From: Candidatus Moranbacteria bacterium GW2011_GWC2_40_12
Lineage (GTDB): Bacteria > Patescibacteriota > Minisyncoccia > Moranbacterales > UBA11712
Direction: 5' to 3'
Assembly (NCBI GenBank): GCA_000995965.1
Contig: LBYD01000002.1
Coordinates: 270,563 to 334,562 of the forward strand
Length of the DNA stretch: 64,000 nucleotides
Made by a program: the position numbers and the translations under genes. Positions 7,823 through 62,107 of this stretch are shown one piece after another (position 1 is the stretch's first letter; each line of letters starts with the position of its first letter). A model generated the notes under the pieces. That model saw only the letters and a list, made by a program, of their open reading frames with translations. It was not told the origin of the DNA and searched no databases.

Positions 7823-7892
7823 ACTTCCTTATTCGTCCCACCTAATATTTAATTATATGGTAAAATTAAAGAACATAGATAAATGAATCCAT

Positions 7893-7948
7893 CCCAACAT
7901 TGAATGTTGGGGTGAAATGCTTGACAGAGGCCAAGATAGTGATATAGT
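7893..7948 (+). promoter_or_regulatory. Perfect palindrome cccaacattgaatgttggg followed by sigma70-like promoter TTGACA-16-TATAGT
   Basis: Inverted repeat 7893-7912; TTGACA 7921-7926, TATAGT 7943-7948; upstream of BRO-N gene at 8002. Confidence 0.45.
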
Positions 7949-8001
7949 GATAGTGTGTTATCCGGGCAGGCTATCTTTATTATTAGAAACAGAAATAAAC
8001 G

Positions 8002-8841
8002 ATGAAAAAAGAAGAGAGAATTGCCATTTTTGAAGGCAAAAAAATCCGCCGGCAGTGGGATGAAAAAGAAGAAAAATGGTATTTTTCGGTTGTTGATATT
8101 GTCCAATTGTTAATTCAGCAAGACAACTATCAAGTTGCCAGAAAATACTGGAATAAGCTCAAAGAAAGGCTTAATAAAGAGGGAAATGAGTCGGTGACAA
8201 ATTGTCACCAACTGAAATTTATGGCTAATGACGGCAAATATTACGCAACTGATGCAGCCGATACAGAGACTCTATTACGTCTTGTTCAATCGGTGCCTAG
8301 CCCCAAGGCCGAACCGATTAAGTTGTGGCTGGCGCGAGTGGGATATGAAAGGATAGAGGAAATAAACGACCCGGAAAAAGCCCTCAATCGTAGTCGCGCT
8401 TATTGGCAAAGAATGGGCCGGAGCCAGAAATGGATCCAGCAAAGAATGATGGGGCAGGGAATCAGGAACAAGCTGACGGATTATTGGAAAAATAATGAAG
8501 TCAAAGAGCGGGACGAATACGCTATTCTCACAAACATAATCCACGAGGAGTGGAGCGATTTATCAGTAAAGGAGCATAAAAATTTGAAAAAACTGGAAAG
8601 AGAAAATCTGCGCGACCATATGACAGACGCGGAATTGGTTTTTACAGCTCTTGCTGAACTCTCCACTCGCCAGATCGCCGAAACTATGGAAACCAAGGGC
8701 TTGGAAGAAAACAAAATCCCGGCCAAACGTGGCGGACAGGTTGCGAAAAACGCCAGACTTGAACTGGAACAAAAAACCGGAAAAAGAGTTGTGACAGATG
8801 AAAATTTGAAGTTACATTATATAAAAAAGATAAAATCTTGA
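8002..8841 (+). CDS. BRO-N domain protein (DinD / prophage antirepressor-like)
   Basis: 'IRRQWDEKEEKWYFSVVDIVQLL' matches Bro-N (KilA-N-like) domain; length ~279 aa as in DinD-like proteins. Confidence 0.6.
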   Translation: MKKEERIAIFEGKKIRRQWDEKEEKWYFSVVDIVQLLIQQDNYQVARKYWNKLKERLNKEGNESVTNCHQLKFMANDGKYYATDAADTETLLRLVQSVPSPKAEPIKLWLARVGYERIEEINDPEKALNRSRAYWQRMGRSQKWIQQRMMGQGIRNKLTDYWKNNEVKERDEYAILTNIIHEEWSDLSVKEHKNLKKLERENLRDHMTDAELVFTALAELSTRQIAETMETKGLEENKIPAKRGGQVAKNARLELEQKTGKRVVTDENLKLHYIKKIKS

Positions 8842-9256: not shown

Positions 9257-12200
9257 TTGGAGAGTGGCGTGTCTTTTATGTCTTTGGGGCAAAAAACTCT
9301 CGGGGTGAAAGAGTCTTTCAGCCCACAATCCTCTCTGCGCAAGAGGAAATTTTTCAGACGGCTTCCGATGGTTTCTCTTCCCAACTTAATTGAGGGGCAA
9401 GTGGCTTCTTATGAATGGTTCATGAGAGAAGGCCTGAGGGAACTGCTTGACGAAGTGAATCCAATCAACGATTTCACGGGGAAGGATCTGGAGCTTTCTT
9501 TCGGAGAATATTATTTGGACGAGCCAAAATACGATGAAAAAACCTCGAAAGCGAAAAATATTTCTTTTGAGGCGCCTCTTCGCTCAAAAGTGAAGCTTCT
9601 CAACAAACAGACGGGAGAAGTGAAAGAGCAGGAAGTTTATCTCGGAGATATTCCCATCATGACCGAGCGGGGAACATTCATCATAAATGGCGTGGAACGC
9701 GTCGTTGTCAGCCAGCTTATTCGAAGCCCAGGCGTCTTTTTTACTATGGAATATAATAAAGGGCAGCGACTTTTTGGGGCGAAAATCATTCCTAACCGCG
9801 GAGCCTGGCTTGAAATGGAAACTGATCTTGACGGCGCCATTTGGGTGAAAATTGACCGGAAAAGAAAAATAGCCATCACGGCGCTTCTTCGCGCGTTTGG
9901 TTTTTCCAGCGATGAAAATCTGGTAAAAACCTTTTCAGACGTTGATACCGGAGAGAAAAAATATATTGAAGCTACGATTGATAAGGATACGACCAAAAAT
10001 CAAGGAGAAGGATTTCTAGAAGTTTATCGGCGCATCAGGCCGGGAGATTTAGCGACCCAGGAAAATGCCAAACAGATGATTGAAGCGATGTTTTTCAATT
10101 TTGAACGCTATGATTTCGGGAAAGTCGGGCGCTATCGCTTGAACCAAAGAATGGAAACGAAGTTTCCTGATGATGAAGCGCATCGGATCATGCGTCCGGA
10201 GGATTTGGCTGAAATTGTCAAAGAAATTATCCGTCTCAACAATGATCCAATGGCAAGTCCGGATGATATTGACCATTTAGGAAACCGCCGAGTGCGCTGT
10301 GTTGGAGAGCTGGTGCAGAACAAATTCCGGGCGGGTCTGGCGCGGATGTCTCGAAATATCAAAGACCGGATGAGTACCTGCGACCTTGCGACGGTTGTTC
10401 CGGGGCAGCTAATCAATTCCCGTCCGGTGGCAGCCGCGGTAAAAGAATTTTTCGCCTCCTCCCAACTTTCGCAGTTCATGGACCAGGTGAATCCTCTGGC
10501 GGAGCTTGAACACAAGAGAAGGCTTTCAGCGATGGGGCCGGGAGGACTGACCCGCGAACGGGCCGGCTTCGAAGTCCGCGACGTGCACCAATCACACTAC
10601 GGAAGGATTTGTCCAGTGCAGACTCCGGAAGGCCCAAATATCGGACTCGTGAATCATTTATCCTGCTATGCCCGAATCAACGAATACGGTTTTATCGAAA
10701 CTCCATACCGAAAAGTGACACACAAAAACGGAAAACATTTTGTTACGAAGGACATAGAGTATTTAAACGCTACCGTGGAAGACCGCAAAATCATCGCTCA
10801 CGCAGATACGGAAATCGACGAAGAAGGACGCATTTTGAATGAAATGCTCGAAGCGAGGGTAAAAGGGAAACCCTCGATGATTGAAGTAGGTCAAGTTGAT
10901 TATATTGATGTTTCTGCCAAACAATGCATTTCCGTTTCTACGGCGCTAATTCCTTTTCTAGAACACGATGACGCTCACCGGGCTCTCATGGGCTCGAACA
11001 TGCAGCGCCAAGCCGTTTCTTGTATTGTGCCCCAGGCGCCATTGGTCGGAACGGGGCTCGAAGACAAAGCGGCGGCAGATTCGGGGCAGGTGGTTCTGGC
11101 CCGGACAAACGGCGAAGTTGTCGAGGTTGACGCTGATCATATTACCTTAAAAGAGGAAGGTATTTCGGGAAAGTCAGCCAAAAGAACTTATCACCTTCAA
11201 AGCTTTGAGCGTTCAAACGCTTTCACCTGCATGAACCAGATTCCGCGTGTTGAAGCAGGCGAACAGGTGAAAAAAGGGCAACTTCTTGCGGACGGCGCTT
11301 CAACAGACAGCGGTGAACTGGCGCTGGGTCAGAACATTTTGGTAGCTCTTATGCCTTGGGAAGGCGCCAATTTTGAAGACGCGATTATTATTTCGGAAAG
11401 ACTTCTTCAGGATGACCGCTATACTTCGATTCACATCGAAGATTTCACAGTTGATATTCGCGACACAAAACTGGGGCCGGAAGTGGTGACGCGGGACATC
11501 CCAAATATTGGGGAAGAGCGACTCAAAAATCTTGACGATACGGGAATAATTCACATCGGAGCCGAGGTTTCTTCCGGCGATATCCTAATTGGAAAAATAT
11601 CTCCCAAGGGCGAGGGGGACCTCACTCCCGAAGAAAGATTGCTGAGGGCGATTTTCGGGGAGAAATCAAAAGACGTAAAGGATACCTCCCTTTATCTTCC
11701 TCACGGGGAACACGGAAAAGTGGTGGACATAAAGATTTTCTCGCGGGAACAAGGAGATAAGCTTCCCGCCGGCGTCATTCAGCAGATTCAGGTCAGTGTG
11801 GCCCAGCTTAGAAAAATTTCAGTTGGCGATAAACTGGCCGGCCGGCACGGAAACAAGGGTGTGATTTCTAAAATAGCTCCGGCTGAAGATATGCCCTATC
11901 TTCCCGATGGAACTCCAGTCGACATTATCCTCAATCCTTTGGGCGTGGCATCCCGCATGAACATTGGCCAGATTCTCGAAGCCCATTTAGGCTGGGCGGC
12001 GGATAAGCTTGGATACAAGGTGGCGAGCCCCTCTCTTGCCGGCGTGAGCGAGACTGATATCAAGACCGAACTGCGTGAAGCGGGACTCCCTGAAGATGGA
12101 AAAATCAGATTGATAAACGGAAAAACAGGCGAACACTTCGATGAAAAAACCATGGTTGGCCATATGTATATAATGAAACTCAATCATTTGGTTGAAGATA

Positions 12201-16162: not shown

Positions 16163-16202
16163 TTGGAAAGTATCGAAAAATATTTGGTATTTCGCATAAA
16201 GA

Positions 16203-16226
16203 AAATCCGCCTTGGGCGGATTTTTC
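16203..16226 (+). terminator. Rho-independent terminator after rpoC (aaaatccgccttgggcggattttt)
   Basis: Hairpin ccgcc-ttgg-gcgg + T-run. Confidence 0.7.
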
Positions 16227-16545
16227 TTATGGGGAAAAGATTTAAATTTTAAAACCACAAATGCAATTTATGATTTTGGAAAAGAGGGAGTGAAATATAT
16301 TCTAATAATATAATTCATATCACTTCTCAATTCCTATTCTAACCCTACATTATACGCTTATTTTATGCTTTTGTCAATCTCCCGTGAAACATTTTGAAAT
16401 ACGCTGTGAAACGAAGAATGACGCCTCATATAAAGCATTATTTCGTAAAAAACAACCTTTGCAGGTTATTTTCAAAAAACAAAATACGCCTAAAGATTTG
16501 AATCCAAACTTGAGCTGATTTATTCGCTTTTACTCTCCATAACCT

Positions 16546-16701
16546 TCATCTCCGCGACGCGAGGGCGGCGAGAATGAGCCCGGCTACGTTCACCAGAACC
16601 AGAAGCCCCGCGACCACGAGAGTCGAGACGATGGAGAAGGCGCCATAGAGGCCGTATCTCCCGTGCCGATACTCAGCGGGAGAAATCCAACGCTTTTTCA
16701 T
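16546..16701 (-). CDS. Candidate 51-aa single-TM hydrophobic peptide (MKKRWISPAEYRHGRYGLYGAFSIVSTLVVAGLLVLVNVAGLILAALASRR), locally GC-rich
   Basis: Uninterrupted ATG..TGA ORF below the ORF-track cutoff; strongly hydrophobic C-terminal helix; GC ~60% versus AT-rich surroundings; no obvious SD. Confidence 0.3.
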   Translation of the reverse strand: MKKRWISPAEYRHGRYGLYGAFSIVSTLVVAGLLVLVNVAGLILAALASRR

Positions 16702-16887
16702 AACGATAGCCTAATAATTAGCTATCTTTATTTTTTCCGCCAAATCTGGCGGACAAAACAGCCTATCATGAGGAAAAAAATCTGTCAACAAAAAAATCCC
16801 GAAACAACAAAAAAGGCTTATAAAAAGCCAAATTAATCTATTTCTAAAGTCAAACCCGGAGGGAAAGACTAAATCTACACATATTTC

Positions 16888-16913
16888 AATTGTATCATAA
16901 TAACACGGCCGTC
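16888..16913. repeat. 26-bp direct repeat copy 1 (caattgtatcataataacacggccgtc)
   Basis: Matches 17497-17524 with 2 mismatches; together they bracket the 16928-17485 gene. Confidence 0.6.
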
Positions 16914-16927
16914 TTATTATGATACAA

Positions 16928-17485
16928 CTATCTTCTAAAAAAATGCCTTTTGAGGGCGGGTTCGCTGTCGATGTTTGTCGCGGTGACAACCCTAACATAA
17001 GGCTGGGCCGAATAAAGTGAGACAAGCTCCTGGATGGGCTTTTCAAATGGATGCGGAGAAACAAAAACGCTGTGCTGGAGTTTCAAAAATTTGAGCGTCC
17101 GCAAATGCTCGCGCAGAATATCGCGAAACAGCCGATTTTTCTCCGGAATGTCGAAAAGAACGAGCCGCCATTTTCCATCCCAGCGCTTCGGCCTTTTGAA
17201 ATTTATGGAGCTTCCGATGAGACTCAATATTTTCGCTTCCCGTTTGCCTCTTGTCGTCAGAACCAGTCTGAAAGATCCGTCAGGGAGCCTTTTTTCTTTA
17301 AGGAGTTTTTCATCGGAGAGACGGTGCAAAGAGCGGTTGAAATTCCGTTGGTCAATTTTTCTCCATTCTGACCGCATGAGGCGTAGTGTCCGGTAGTATT
17401 GCCAGGGAGATCGAGAAAAGCCGAGGGCAACACTGCCCATAAGAGCTATGAGTATCTTTTTTTGCACAGGTCCGAATTTATACAT
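16928..17485 (-). CDS. wHTH-like N-terminus fused to Cas2-like domain (PaaX-like architecture); solo, no CRISPR/cas1 nearby
   Basis: 'WRLVLFDIPEKNRLFRDILREHLRTLKFLKLQHSVFVSP...YVRVVTAT' resembles Cas2 core (Y/FDI..D..R.R....L...G.R.Q.SVF.C ... vRvy); N-terminal ~95 aa basic/helical. Confidence 0.5.
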   Translation of the reverse strand: MYKFGPVQKKILIALMGSVALGFSRSPWQYYRTLRLMRSEWRKIDQRNFNRSLHRLSDEKLLKEKRLPDGSFRLVLTTRGKREAKILSLIGSSINFKRPKRWDGKWRLVLFDIPEKNRLFRDILREHLRTLKFLKLQHSVFVSPHPFEKPIQELVSLYSAQPYVRVVTATNIDSEPALKRHFFRR

Positions 17486-17496
17486 GGTCCAATTTC

Positions 17497-17524
17497 CATT
17501 GTATCATAATTATACGGCCGTGGA
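17497..17524. repeat. 26-bp direct repeat copy 2 (ccattgtatcataattatacggccgtgg); contains minus-strand CCGTATAAT -10-like box ~25 nt upstream of ATG 17485
   Basis: See copy 1; a third partial inverted copy AATTATACGGCCGTGG at 61927-61942. Confidence 0.6.
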
Positions 17525-17653
17525 AAGATGATGCGTTGCGGGGTTCTGTAGGGGGAGGATCCTGAATGTGGAGGCTCCTGAAGTTGGACTTTAGGAATGA
17601 TTATCCCGCAGTTTTAAAATCTCTTCAACTGATTGATTATTATTATAACTCAT

Positions 17654-17686
17654 TGAAAAACAAAGACCAGCCCACGGTGGGGCTGG
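17654..17686 (-). terminator. Rho-independent terminator for minus-strand operon (ccagccccaccgtgggctgg + T-run on minus strand)
   Basis: Perfect 8-bp stem hairpin followed by U-run in minus orientation, just 3' of gene ending 17693. Confidence 0.7.
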
Positions 17687-17692
17687 TGTGAG

Positions 17693-18079
17693 TCAGGCCT
17701 TTTTTATTGAGAATATCTCGAGCGTTATGCTCCCGTCAACATGGAAAGTCACTTTTGGCGCAAGTTCAAATTCAATGCTTGTTATGAATTCTTTTGCACT
17801 TTCCCAGGCTTTTTGCAGTCGCCCTCTTTTTTTTGGGTCGAGTTTGAGGTTAAAGAATAGGAAATGACCGTAAAGCTTTGTTTGAACGGGCATTCCATTT
17901 TGATATATTAATACCCCCAGAGTAACCCCTTGTTTTTGCCGAAGTTTTTCAGCAGAAATGGCCATGTCTAGGAAATCTTCCCATGCCTCTGCTTCCAGAT
18001 GCTTTAGCTCCTTTTTACTCAAAACCTCTTTCAGTTCTTTAATTGCCTTATCTGTCGTAAGAAATTGACCCTCGGCCAT
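17693..18079 (-). CDS. Hypothetical soluble protein (128 aa), third gene of XRE/ImmA operon
   Basis: No TM, no known motif; 58-nt gap after ImmA-like gene, same strand. Confidence 0.45.
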   Translation of the reverse strand: MAEGQFLTTDKAIKELKEVLSKKELKHLEAEAWEDFLDMAISAEKLRQKQGVTLGVLIYQNGMPVQTKLYGHFLFFNLKLDPKKRGRLQKAWESAKEFITSIEFELAPKVTFHVDGSITLEIFSIKKA

Positions 18080-18137: not shown

Positions 18138-18659
18138 TCATTCATTGCCTAACTTTAACTCTTTTGCTCTATAATAAATTGCATCACCCGAAACGCCAAA
18201 GAATTTTGCCAACCTTGCCCTCTTCCATATATCTCCATCGGTTATAGAATTCCACTTATCGCGAAACAGTATCTTGGGCATCAAAAAAGCCGCCGCGAAT
18301 CTTTCACAGAATCTTTCTTCGCCCCAGGCAGAATAAATATCCCCAGTTGAGAAACCATACTTTAATCCCGAGTTTCTGATTATATGCGCAATTTCATGAC
18401 ATAAGGTGAATCTTTGCCTATATTCCGGTTCCTTGGAATTTATCCAGATTTGGAAAATATTTCTCGCAGGATCGAAATACTCAAGTCCCGATGGTTTGAA
18501 TTCTTTTGAATCGGTATGAGAAATTTTCACTCTTATTCCAAGATTCTCTTCTGTCCATTTAATCAAGGAAAATTCTGAAGGCATTTCCTCTTTTATGCCG
18601 TCGTAAATCGCTTTGGCAATATCTTCTGCATTTAGATTTATTCCTTCATATGATTTCAT
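18138..18659 (-). CDS. ImmA/IrrE-family metallopeptidase (DUF955/COG2856-like), HEXXH 'HEIAH'
   Basis: 'FTLCHEIAHIIRN' zinc-metallopeptidase motif; overlaps upstream XRE gene by 4 nt (ATGA). Confidence 0.7.
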   Translation of the reverse strand: MKSYEGINLNAEDIAKAIYDGIKEEMPSEFSLIKWTEENLGIRVKISHTDSKEFKPSGLEYFDPARNIFQIWINSKEPEYRQRFTLCHEIAHIIRNSGLKYGFSTGDIYSAWGEERFCERFAAAFLMPKILFRDKWNSITDGDIWKRARLAKFFGVSGDAIYYRAKELKLGNE

Positions 18660-18985
18660 ACTCGCTTTCCGAAATTATCGATTAAATCTTCAATTAACTT
18701 CACATCAATCTCATTTTTAATTTTGTATTTTTTCCGCAAATACATTCTTAGAGGAGATGGCTCATTCTGCTCAATGACATTAAGATTATCAAGTATCTCT
18801 TTGACTTTAATACCTAATCCTTGAGCAAGTTTTATGATTGAATGCAGGGAAATATTTTTTTTGTCAAAATCTCCTTTCTCAATACGCGAAATGAAGGCCT
18901 TTGATAAGCTTGATCTTTCGGACAGTTCGTCGATCGTAAGAGATTTGTTATCCCTATATTTTTTAACAATATTACTTAGTTGCAT
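18656..18985 (-). CDS. XRE-family helix-turn-helix transcriptional regulator
   Basis: 'KSLTIDELSERSSLSKAFISRIEKGD' canonical Cro/C1 HTH; 109 aa. Confidence 0.75.
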   Translation of the reverse strand: MQLSNIVKKYRDNKSLTIDELSERSSLSKAFISRIEKGDFDKKNISLHSIIKLAQGLGIKVKEILDNLNVIEQNEPSPLRMYLRKKYKIKNEIDVKLIEDLIDNFGKRV

Positions 18986-61861: not shown

Positions 61862-62107
61862 TGTATTTAGAATACTTGAAAATGCATTATTATACAATAT
61901 TACAATATTTATTTTCGGAAATAAATACAATTTAGCATTTTCCCACGGCCGTATAATTTTGCTAATTTTGTGCGTTCTCAATAAAAAACAGGCCGGTCCG
62001 CGACGGAAACGTGTCCGTCGGGATCAGCCTGGGTATAATCCCTTCTAACATTTAATGTTAGGATAATATTATATCAATATTTTCGATATTCTTGCATAAG
62101 AAAACCC

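Follow-up and report, generated by a model that had tools for sequence, protein, structure and literature searches.

A short PaaX-type protein bracketed by palindromes in a Moranbacteria genome: a candidate minimal autoregulated repressor

A 64 000-nucleotide stretch of the genome of Candidatus Moranbacteria bacterium GW2011_GWC2_40_12 (contig LBYD01000002.1, positions 270 563–334 562; hereafter the window) encodes a 185-residue protein, here termed mini-PaaX, in which a predicted winged helix-turn-helix (wHTH) region precedes the Cas2-like domain of the phenylacetate repressor PaaX, and whose gene lies between two copies of a palindrome. The gene probably specifies a minimal PaaX-type repressor that controls its own expression through twin palindromic operators and has a few further sites. 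The observations that lead to this proposal are homology and fold, the overlap of one palindrome with a consensus promoter, the association of gene and palindrome across the family and the specificity of the palindromes for lineage and paralogue; DNA binding, repression and a role for the downstream site would follow by inference. An earlier interpretation made without database searches (the sequence-only reading) had delimited the same open reading frame (ORF) correctly, had described it as Cas2-like and flanked by 26 bp direct repeats and had offered a PaaX-like regulator, a VapD/Cas2-type toxin or a mobile cassette as explanations.

The only strong Pfam match of the protein is to PF20803 (`PaaX protein central Cas2-like domain', PaaX_M; E 1.2 × 10−22 over residues 100–175, 80.2 bits against a cut-off of 24). 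The equivalog model for PaaX, TIGR02277, matches in part (protein residues 44–171 onto model positions 32–153 of 279; E 4.9 × 10−10), with 39.4 bits against a curated threshold of 264.55. Cas2 models score below their thresholds (PF09827, 15.4 bits versus 23.8; TIGR01573, 17.7 versus 24.5), and those of Pfam, NCBIfam and PADLOC reach residues 106–142 alone, with E 6 × 10−4 for the PADLOC Cas2 model. The Cas2-like character of the segment is thus real, but the segment is better described as PaaX_M. PF08223 (PaaX_C) was not found, and the protein stops at residue 185, 10 residues past PaaX_M. No paa genes occur among the neighbours of the gene, in the neighbourhoods of its homologues or among the best 25 of the 90 Pfam families of the window. 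Because the equivalog threshold is failed, PaaX_C is absent and paa neighbours are lacking, mini-PaaX is a PaaX relative (a predicted wHTH and PaaX_M without the C-terminal domain) and not a PaaX orthologue.

PDB sequences were searched with the family profile and with the C-terminal domain, neither of which matched PaaX or Cas2, so that a fold search was needed; the family profile gave a weak wHTH match (QsrR/MarR, E 0.04). An AlphaFold2 model made from 25 homologues (mean predicted local distance difference test score 71) comprises a helical N-terminal domain with a β-hairpin wing, followed by a βαββαβ domain. A Foldseek search of the PDB places Escherichia coli PaaX (8A39) first, with E 4.8 × 10−5 over 135 aligned columns, followed by many Cas2 structures (E about 0.02, target template-modelling score 0.5–0.6) and then by Rv0674 and VapD, the Cas2 and VapD matches together spanning E 0.02–0.09. 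The WDGKW...SP segment was aligned by hhalign with residues 96–148 of E. coli PaaX. The strong PF20803 match, the rank of 8A39 and the equivalent position of the M domain in the two proteins support the PaaX-like architecture that had been proposed. In the model, the putative recognition helix spans about residues 46–58 (QRNFNRSLHRLSD) and the wing spans residues 62–76; Arg51 and Ser52 are unchanged throughout the homologue alignment (A1). The PaaX_M domain carries an invariant motif, W-D-x-K-W-R...F-D-x-P-E, which includes Asp112. This invariant residue lies inside the strand 1 segment covered by the Cas2 models and, from the coordinates 2–36 of the hidden Markov model (HMM), may be the counterpart of the catalytic aspartate of Cas2.

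The flanking repeats share an exact 24-nucleotide core, ATTGTATCATAATNANACGGCCGT, at 16889–16912 and 17498–17521; a third match is the downstream copy again, read on the reverse strand. The core had zero matches in 100 dinucleotide-preserving shuffles, and the similarity stretches to 41 nucleotides at 80% identity (16883–16923 versus 17492–17532). The repeats around the gene are therefore not due to chance. The 26 bp direct repeats of the sequence-only reading are real, but they are copies of a palindrome, near-perfect over 38 bp on the downstream side, and since each copy is itself palindromic the two are inverted as much as direct repeats. Their centres lie about 609 bp apart, and the downstream palindrome begins directly past the TAG stop codon and before an intrinsic terminator, at which the transcription unit of the gene ends. 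The first codons of the gene are copied in the downstream repeat (ATGTATAAATT versus ATGTGTAGATT), so that this repeat resembles a promoter-start module that was duplicated, and not a duplication of target DNA. The central word ACGGCCGT occurs three times in the window (16905, 17514 and 61945) against 0.5 expected. The last occurrence belongs to a solo site that shares the 16-mer CCACGGCCGTATAATT with the upstream copy; the third copy reported at 61927–61942 is thus present, but its centre (61945–61952) lies about 10–18 nucleotides to the right. This site has the terminator of a SAICAR-synthetase-like gene on one side and the start of a VanW-like gene on the other, and its arms are similar to those at the family gene of locus L003/L008. 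The features are collected in Table 1.

Table 1. Coordinates in the window of the mini-PaaX gene, its palindromes and associated signals
Feature	Position	Strand	Basis
mini-PaaX gene, coding sequence including stop codon, 185 aa	16928..17485	−	ORF list, PF20803, partial TIGR02277 match, AlphaFold2/Foldseek
N-terminal wHTH region	17216..17485	−	AlphaFold2 secondary structure, weak MarR/QsrR profile match, Foldseek alignment to PaaX
PaaX_M/Cas2-like ferredoxin-fold domain, residues 100–175	16961..17188	−	PF20803, AlphaFold2, hhalign
Downstream palindrome TTGTATCATAATAACACGG/CCGTCTTATTATGATACAA, 38 bp	16890..16927	.	Inverted-repeat match of 19 + 19 nucleotides, 95%, one mismatch
Upstream imperfect palindrome ATTGTATCATAATTAT-ACGGCCGT-GGAAAGATGAT, centre 17514–17521	17498..17532	.	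79% complementary over 17503–17532
Third, solo site TTTAGCATTTTCCC-ACGGCCGT-ATAATTTTGCTAAT, different arms	61931..61966, centre 61945–61952	.	Motif match
Predicted promoter TTTCCA-17 nucleotides-TACAAT with TG (extended −10)	17498..17526	−	Consensus scan
Intrinsic terminator GGCTTTTTATAAGCC + T-run, about 60 nucleotides past the downstream palindrome	16805..16829	−	Scan (16829–16815); kept in L089

The −10 element of the predicted promoter falls in the gene-proximal arm of the upstream palindrome and ACGGCCGT falls at about −30 to −23; whatever occupied the palindrome would block RNA polymerase. At least nine relatives have a TGATACAAT-type −10 element in the palindrome arm, exactly 6 nucleotides ahead of the ATG, a leaderless arrangement; compared with the 95%-identical relative at locus L089, the window carries an insertion of 6 nucleotides. 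A good extended −10 sequence (TGATACAAT) is also present in the downstream palindrome and is aimed at the segment of about 60 nucleotides between palindrome and terminator (16830–16889, minus strand), so that a short RNA is possible there. This segment is roughly 88% kept in L089 and includes a CCCUCC stretch resembling an anti-Shine-Dalgarno sequence. A 10-codon micro-ORF past the downstream palindrome (MCRFSLSLRV) was rejected as not conserved, its ATG being ACG in L089. Directly upstream of the promoter and palindrome lies a 16-nucleotide tandem repeat, CTGAAGGTGGAGGATC (2.7 copies, 17546–17588), which is partly kept in L089 (82% over 39 nucleotides) and beyond which homology ends. Two candidate terminal inverted repeats were discarded: the flanking motif GGACTTTAGGA is not enriched (13 found versus 17 expected), and a 16-nucleotide inverted repeat (16840–16855/17583–17598) is, by our own estimate, at chance level for a 2 kb region.

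The protein belongs to a large family. A search of 90%-identity clusters gave 392 clusters at E ≤ 0.001, and all 120 of the 120 homologues listed are proteins of about 173–204 residues with PF20803, labelled PaaX in some sources and Cas2 in others. Among 1.84 billion cluster representatives (50% identity) there were 3368 matches at E ≤ 10−3, of which 1224 reached E ≤ 10−10; most of the 150 listed are about 180–200 residues long. Relatives are encoded in at least 570 GTDB species genomes (Moran-, Giovannoni-, Nomura-, Zambryski-, Vogel- and Lloydbacteria, among others), with 65–95% identity within Moranbacteria. Some genomes have two paralogues. A divergent paralogue subfamily, 27–43% identical to the window protein, is found at metagenome loci L101, L102, L125, L131, L141, L143, L152, L165 and L168, its genes lying no more than 200 nucleotides from palindromes of the ATCAT-N6-ACGGCCGT-N6-ATGAT type.

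All close homologues examined have one ACGGCCGT-centred palindrome just before the ATG and another directly past the stop codon, amid unrelated neighbours. When strict palindromes (arms of at least 11 nucleotides, at most one mismatch, within 200 nucleotides of the gene) were counted at 71 GTDB loci, they were present upstream in 34 and downstream in 28, a 15–18-fold enrichment over a background of 0.026 per 200 nucleotides; a relaxed criterion detects one at nearly all loci. More than 50 unrelated loci, from many Patescibacteria lineages, have equivalent palindromes on the flanks of a family member, and in about 20 of 39 scored loci a palindrome falls within 13 nucleotides of the stop codon on either side. 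The centres are conserved by clade (ACGGCCGT, ACGGTCGT, ACGATCGT, GCGATCGC, GC-TATC-GC and GCTATAGC), while the arms vary between genomes and the upstream and downstream copies of one genome match. Paralogues of one genome have different palindromes (L033/L045, L029/L080 and L041/L042). The Moranbacteria architecture is (T)ATCAT-N6-ACGGCCGT-N6-ATGAT(A), in which YCAT boxes accompany a putative recognition helix of the form N-x-x-R-S; loci L021 (NLA) and L020 (NSS) have other boxes. The centres at L006–L085 are all CG-rich 6–8-mers that coincide with type II restriction sites (CGGCCG, CGATCG, GCGATCGC, CTGCAG and GCGGCCGC), GCGATCGC also being the cyanobacterial HIP1 sequence; the coincidence may reflect no more than the rarity of such words in AT-rich genomes.

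A metagenome scan with the pattern ATCAT-N6-ACGGCCGT-N6-ATGAT found only 102 stretches and returned 84 sites in 80 loci. Thirty-one of these lie within 300 nucleotides of a family gene (divergent paralogues included), 22 are solo and 31 could not be assessed. The solo sites are nearly all intergenic and some are upstream of gene starts. Such a low copy number argues against a proliferating repeat of the repetitive extragenic palindromic (REP) type and fits a small regulon.

These features would be accounted for as follows. The wHTH region would bind DNA and the PaaX_M domain would probably form a dimer, the flanking repeats being two copies of the cognate palindromic site. The dimer could dock with one recognition helix on each of the outer CAT/ATG boxes, which are about 25 bp apart, its axis lying over the CG-rich centre. 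Occupancy of the upstream site would mask the spacer and −10 element of the promoter that drives the gene itself (extended −10, with no leader or hardly any), and negative autoregulation would result, as for PaaX at Px. PaaX recognizes TGATTC-N27-GAATCA (39 bp) and, by sterically hindering RNA polymerase, represses its own Px promoter (PMC9493321); by analogy, the comparable span of the palindrome (38 bp) supports its reading as an operator. The site at the stop codon could be a second operator, used for cooperative binding or looping over the gene of about 600 bp or for the control of a weak outward promoter, and the few solo sites elsewhere in the genome would then form a small regulon.

Several points weigh against a simple autoregulated repressor. 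PF07848, the PaaX wHTH model, has no match in the protein up to E 10. The protein is without a ligand-binding domain, so that no signal input can be proposed. A second copy at the stop codon is more than simple autoregulation needs, and the gene beyond that copy is never conserved: an all-against-all BLAST of the first downstream ORFs of 29 loci found no recurring family, and a conserved target gene for the second palindrome was accordingly rejected. Several solo sites occupy non-promoter positions, between convergent gene ends or in 3′ untranslated regions (UTRs) before terminators, so that promoter occlusion is not the whole story, and the genes beside solo sites (adk, tsaE, ftsK, rny, polA, valS and a VanW-like gene) share no functional theme. 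The nominally free N6 spacers are 69% self-complementary against a null of 38% (maximum 46% in 1000 shuffles), compensatory double changes are seen between the window and L089, between L113 and L157 and between two sites of L110, and palindromes reach 66 bp. The last three observations could reflect hairpin or cruciform formation, or homogenization by template switching, beyond protein readout alone; template switching is a known mutational process that homogenizes palindromes neutrally. The stop-codon palindrome and the self-complementary variable arms are the features that a simple operator model leaves unexplained.

Alternatively, the palindromes would act as hairpins or cruciforms, in single- or double-stranded DNA, that are recognized and possibly nicked by the Cas2-fold domain. 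The unit of palindrome, gene and palindrome would then be self-maintaining or slowly mobile, with a layout comparable to that of REP elements and their associated tyrosine transposases (RAYTs). This explanation, together with its corollary that the solo palindromes are dispersed copies, is considered unlikely. In its favour are the lineage-specific palindromes that bracket the family genes, the self-complementary spacers with their compensatory changes and long palindromes, the solo copies at non-promoter positions and the invariance of Asp112 within the Cas2-matched segment; an acidic residue is, however, also present (as Glu) in the non-nuclease repressor PaaX, and neutral template switching can yield symmetric double changes. 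Locus L089 is homologous to the window (91% nucleotide identity) only from about 17596 to about 16805, that is over palindrome, gene, palindrome and terminator, with unrelated flanks, and neighbourhoods vary among close relatives and are often accessory (restriction-modification, Fic or CapH/CapP-like). In L124, where RpoC is 70% identical, the rpoC–ftsK gap that holds the gene in the window contains a solo ATCAT..ACGGCCGT..ATGAT palindrome and no family gene (L124/L144, about 7889–8165), while in L074 (Giovannonibacteria, 9860–11294) a family gene lies between rpoC and ftsK. This gap may be the ancestral home of the palindrome–gene unit, and the L089 and L124/L074 observations lend weak support to mobility.

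Other observations point away from such mobility. The copies are few, with three in the 64 kb window and 102 strict matches across the metagenome collection. Paralogues within a genome are 34–76% identical, so that there has been no recent transposition, and no genome with near-identical copies was found. The assembly collection has the exact protein in 65 indexed blocks; the 24 contigs with it that were read have the same rpoC...ftsK context, at three places shown and 21 grouped as similar. No target-site duplication, recent multicopy spread or strain-level mobility was seen. Neither a transposase nor an HUH/Y1 domain is present, PaaX_M being the only domain found. A phage origin was rejected, as PHROGs gave no match and there was a single match among 2.9 million viral contigs. 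The broader proposition that wHTH-Cas2-like proteins of Patescibacteria recognize, and perhaps cut, hairpins or cruciforms, each maintaining its own palindromes at both ends of its gene and in a few other places, is likewise doubtful. If true, it would be a pairing of repeat and Cas2-fold protein similar to REP/RAYT or to a forerunner of CRISPR (clustered regularly interspaced short palindromic repeats), linking Cas2, PaaX-type regulators and palindromic repeats.

It is rather improbable that RNA is the functional form, with the downstream palindrome forming a 17–19 bp 3′ UTR hairpin that stabilizes the mRNA, terminates it or is a target to which the protein binds or which it cleaves in post-transcriptional autoregulation, and the upstream copy serving only as promoter DNA. 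The 3′ UTR with this palindrome, between stop codon and terminator, folds strongly (z = −5.5), the apposition to the stop codon is tight across the family, some solo sites lie in 3′ UTRs just ahead of terminators, and Cas2 and VapD relatives include RNases according to their PDB descriptions. Mismatches read in the sense of the gene favour G·T over A·C by 32 to 16, a weak lean, as the other 70 of 118 are not wobble-compatible. The upstream copy is equally conserved though it lies outside the transcript of the predicted promoter, the best homologue is a DNA-binding repressor and no Rfam family matches: at gathering thresholds Rfam identifies only tRNAs in the window, with chance-level matches (E 0.2–0.4) at the locus.

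Less probable still is a generic role, in which the palindromes would be promoter or terminator elements peculiar to each lineage, or would bind a different factor, and the function of the protein would be unrelated to them. Their arms do hold good extended −10 sequences (TGATACAAT and TGCTAAATT) and solo copies stand beside unrelated housekeeping genes. Against this, the association recurs at more than 50 loci in many Patescibacteria lineages with unrelated neighbours, the 15–18-fold enrichment applies upstream and downstream alike and each paralogue has palindromes of its own; away from the family the motif is too rare to be a general promoter. The sequence-only reading had allowed for a ubiquitous promoter motif, and solo copies do exist elsewhere, but they are rare and family-specific.

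A mobile cassette with 26 bp target-site duplications, or a solo Cas2/VapD-type toxin, is very improbable: the repeats do bracket the gene and the Cas2-like fold is real, but the long palindromes are conserved in kind and not in sequence across the family, include promoter features and the first codons of the gene, and recur at more than 50 unrelated loci. Paralogues within one genome are divergent, the contigs read with the exact protein share one context with no strain-level polymorphism, and viral contigs gave one match. The toxin has no direct support, given sub-threshold Cas2 HMMs, Foldseek E values of about 0.02–0.09 and the lack of cas1, of an array and of a conserved partner antitoxin gene.

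The window is otherwise ordinary chromosome of an uncultivated, ultra-small, Moranbacteria-related bacterium of the Patescibacteria, or candidate phyla radiation (CPR), with rpoB, rpoC, ftsK, recA, groEL and type IV pilus genes. In line with the sequence-only reading, it has no CRISPR-like array (by Tandem Repeats Finder) and no strong Cas match: among the best 25 of 39 PADLOC families matched by the 57 ORFs of at least 100 residues there is no strong Cas family, the remainder being weaker than about 3 × 10−8. The loci of homologues have no cas genes. The gene order is rpoC, a 51-residue ORF, the mini-PaaX gene, a 128-residue orphan, an M78 peptidase, an HTH_3 protein and ftsK. The HTH_3 (109 residues) and Peptidase_M78 (173 residues) genes, with a 4-nucleotide overlap, and the orphan occupy 18138–18985 and 17693–18079 on the minus strand. 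In PADLOC the HTH_3 protein matches capH (4.9 × 10−10) and the peptidase matches capP (5.3 × 10−18), as in a CapH/CapP- or ImmR/ImmA-like control pair; the orphan follows downstream on the same strand with its own terminator (17666–17687). Together these genes could be a small regulated defence or toxin module adjoining mini-PaaX. In the window (16546–16701, minus strand) and in a 77%-identical relative (L003/L008, 4682–4837) alike, the mini-PaaX unit is followed by a hydrophobic 51-residue ORF; the two peptides have no detectable similarity and the neighbourhoods are otherwise different. The gap between rpoC and this ORF (16195–16377, minus strand) contains a perfect σ70 promoter, TTGACA-17-TATAAT (16377→16349), and a hairpin with a T-run about 110 nucleotides past it (about 16195–16236), a candidate small RNA of about 130 nucleotides for which Rfam gave no match above chance.

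Patescibacteria have very few recognizable transcription factors and almost no characterized regulation. The mini-PaaX family offers a tractable entry point to regulation in the CPR, as its putative site predicts a regulon from sequence. It also shows a PaaX-type regulator without a ligand domain, its sequence being intermediate between Cas2 and PaaX, which bears on the recruitment of the Cas2 fold for DNA-related functions, and it flags a recurrent mis-annotation in CPR genomes as `CRISPR-associated endonuclease Cas2'. A literature search found no paper linking PaaX with Cas2 or with Patescibacteria; the domain family is known, yet the short clade and its palindrome bracket appear to be undescribed in the searchable literature.

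The autoregulated repressors of looping systems (GalR, DeoR, LacI and λ CI) likewise have paired copies of a single palindromic site, one at the promoter and the other several hundred base pairs away; in mini-PaaX the second operator would lie at the 3′ end of its own gene, looping is a conjecture and no tetramerization module was identified. As in REP/RAYT systems, the gene is flanked by its own lineage-specific palindromes and extra intergenic copies exist, including some between convergent genes. In contrast to those systems, mini-PaaX is not a Y1/HUH transposase, the copies are fewer by one to two orders of magnitude, REPIN-like doublets did not turn up and the upstream palindrome doubles as a promoter. 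With Cas2 the protein shares the ferredoxin-like βαββαβ fold of the AlphaFold2 model, and the pattern LVxFDI...Q.SVF over strand 1, helix 1 and strand 2, and its invariant Asp112 falls in the strand 1 segment that the Cas2 models match. It differs in that the domain is fused to a wHTH, scores below the Cas2 thresholds and has no cas1, array or other cas genes beside it, and in that the family is about single-copy and chromosomal irrespective of CRISPR in the host. PaaX itself, whose domains in E. coli K-12 are PF07848 (19–87), PF20803 (104–172) and PF08223 (190–280), differs in its phenylacetyl-CoA-responsive PaaX_C, its PF07848 match and its paa neighbours, none of which was seen for mini-PaaX, a protein of Patescibacteria. 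The mini-PaaX site has a conserved CG-rich centre and a conserved second copy at the stop codon, the latter not described for PaaX. The two proteins nevertheless agree in an N-terminal region of about 90 residues, a predicted wHTH in mini-PaaX, followed by PaaX_M at the same position (104–172 versus 100–175), and the putative inverted repeat of about 38 bp lies over the gene's own promoter, as does the PaaX site at Px.

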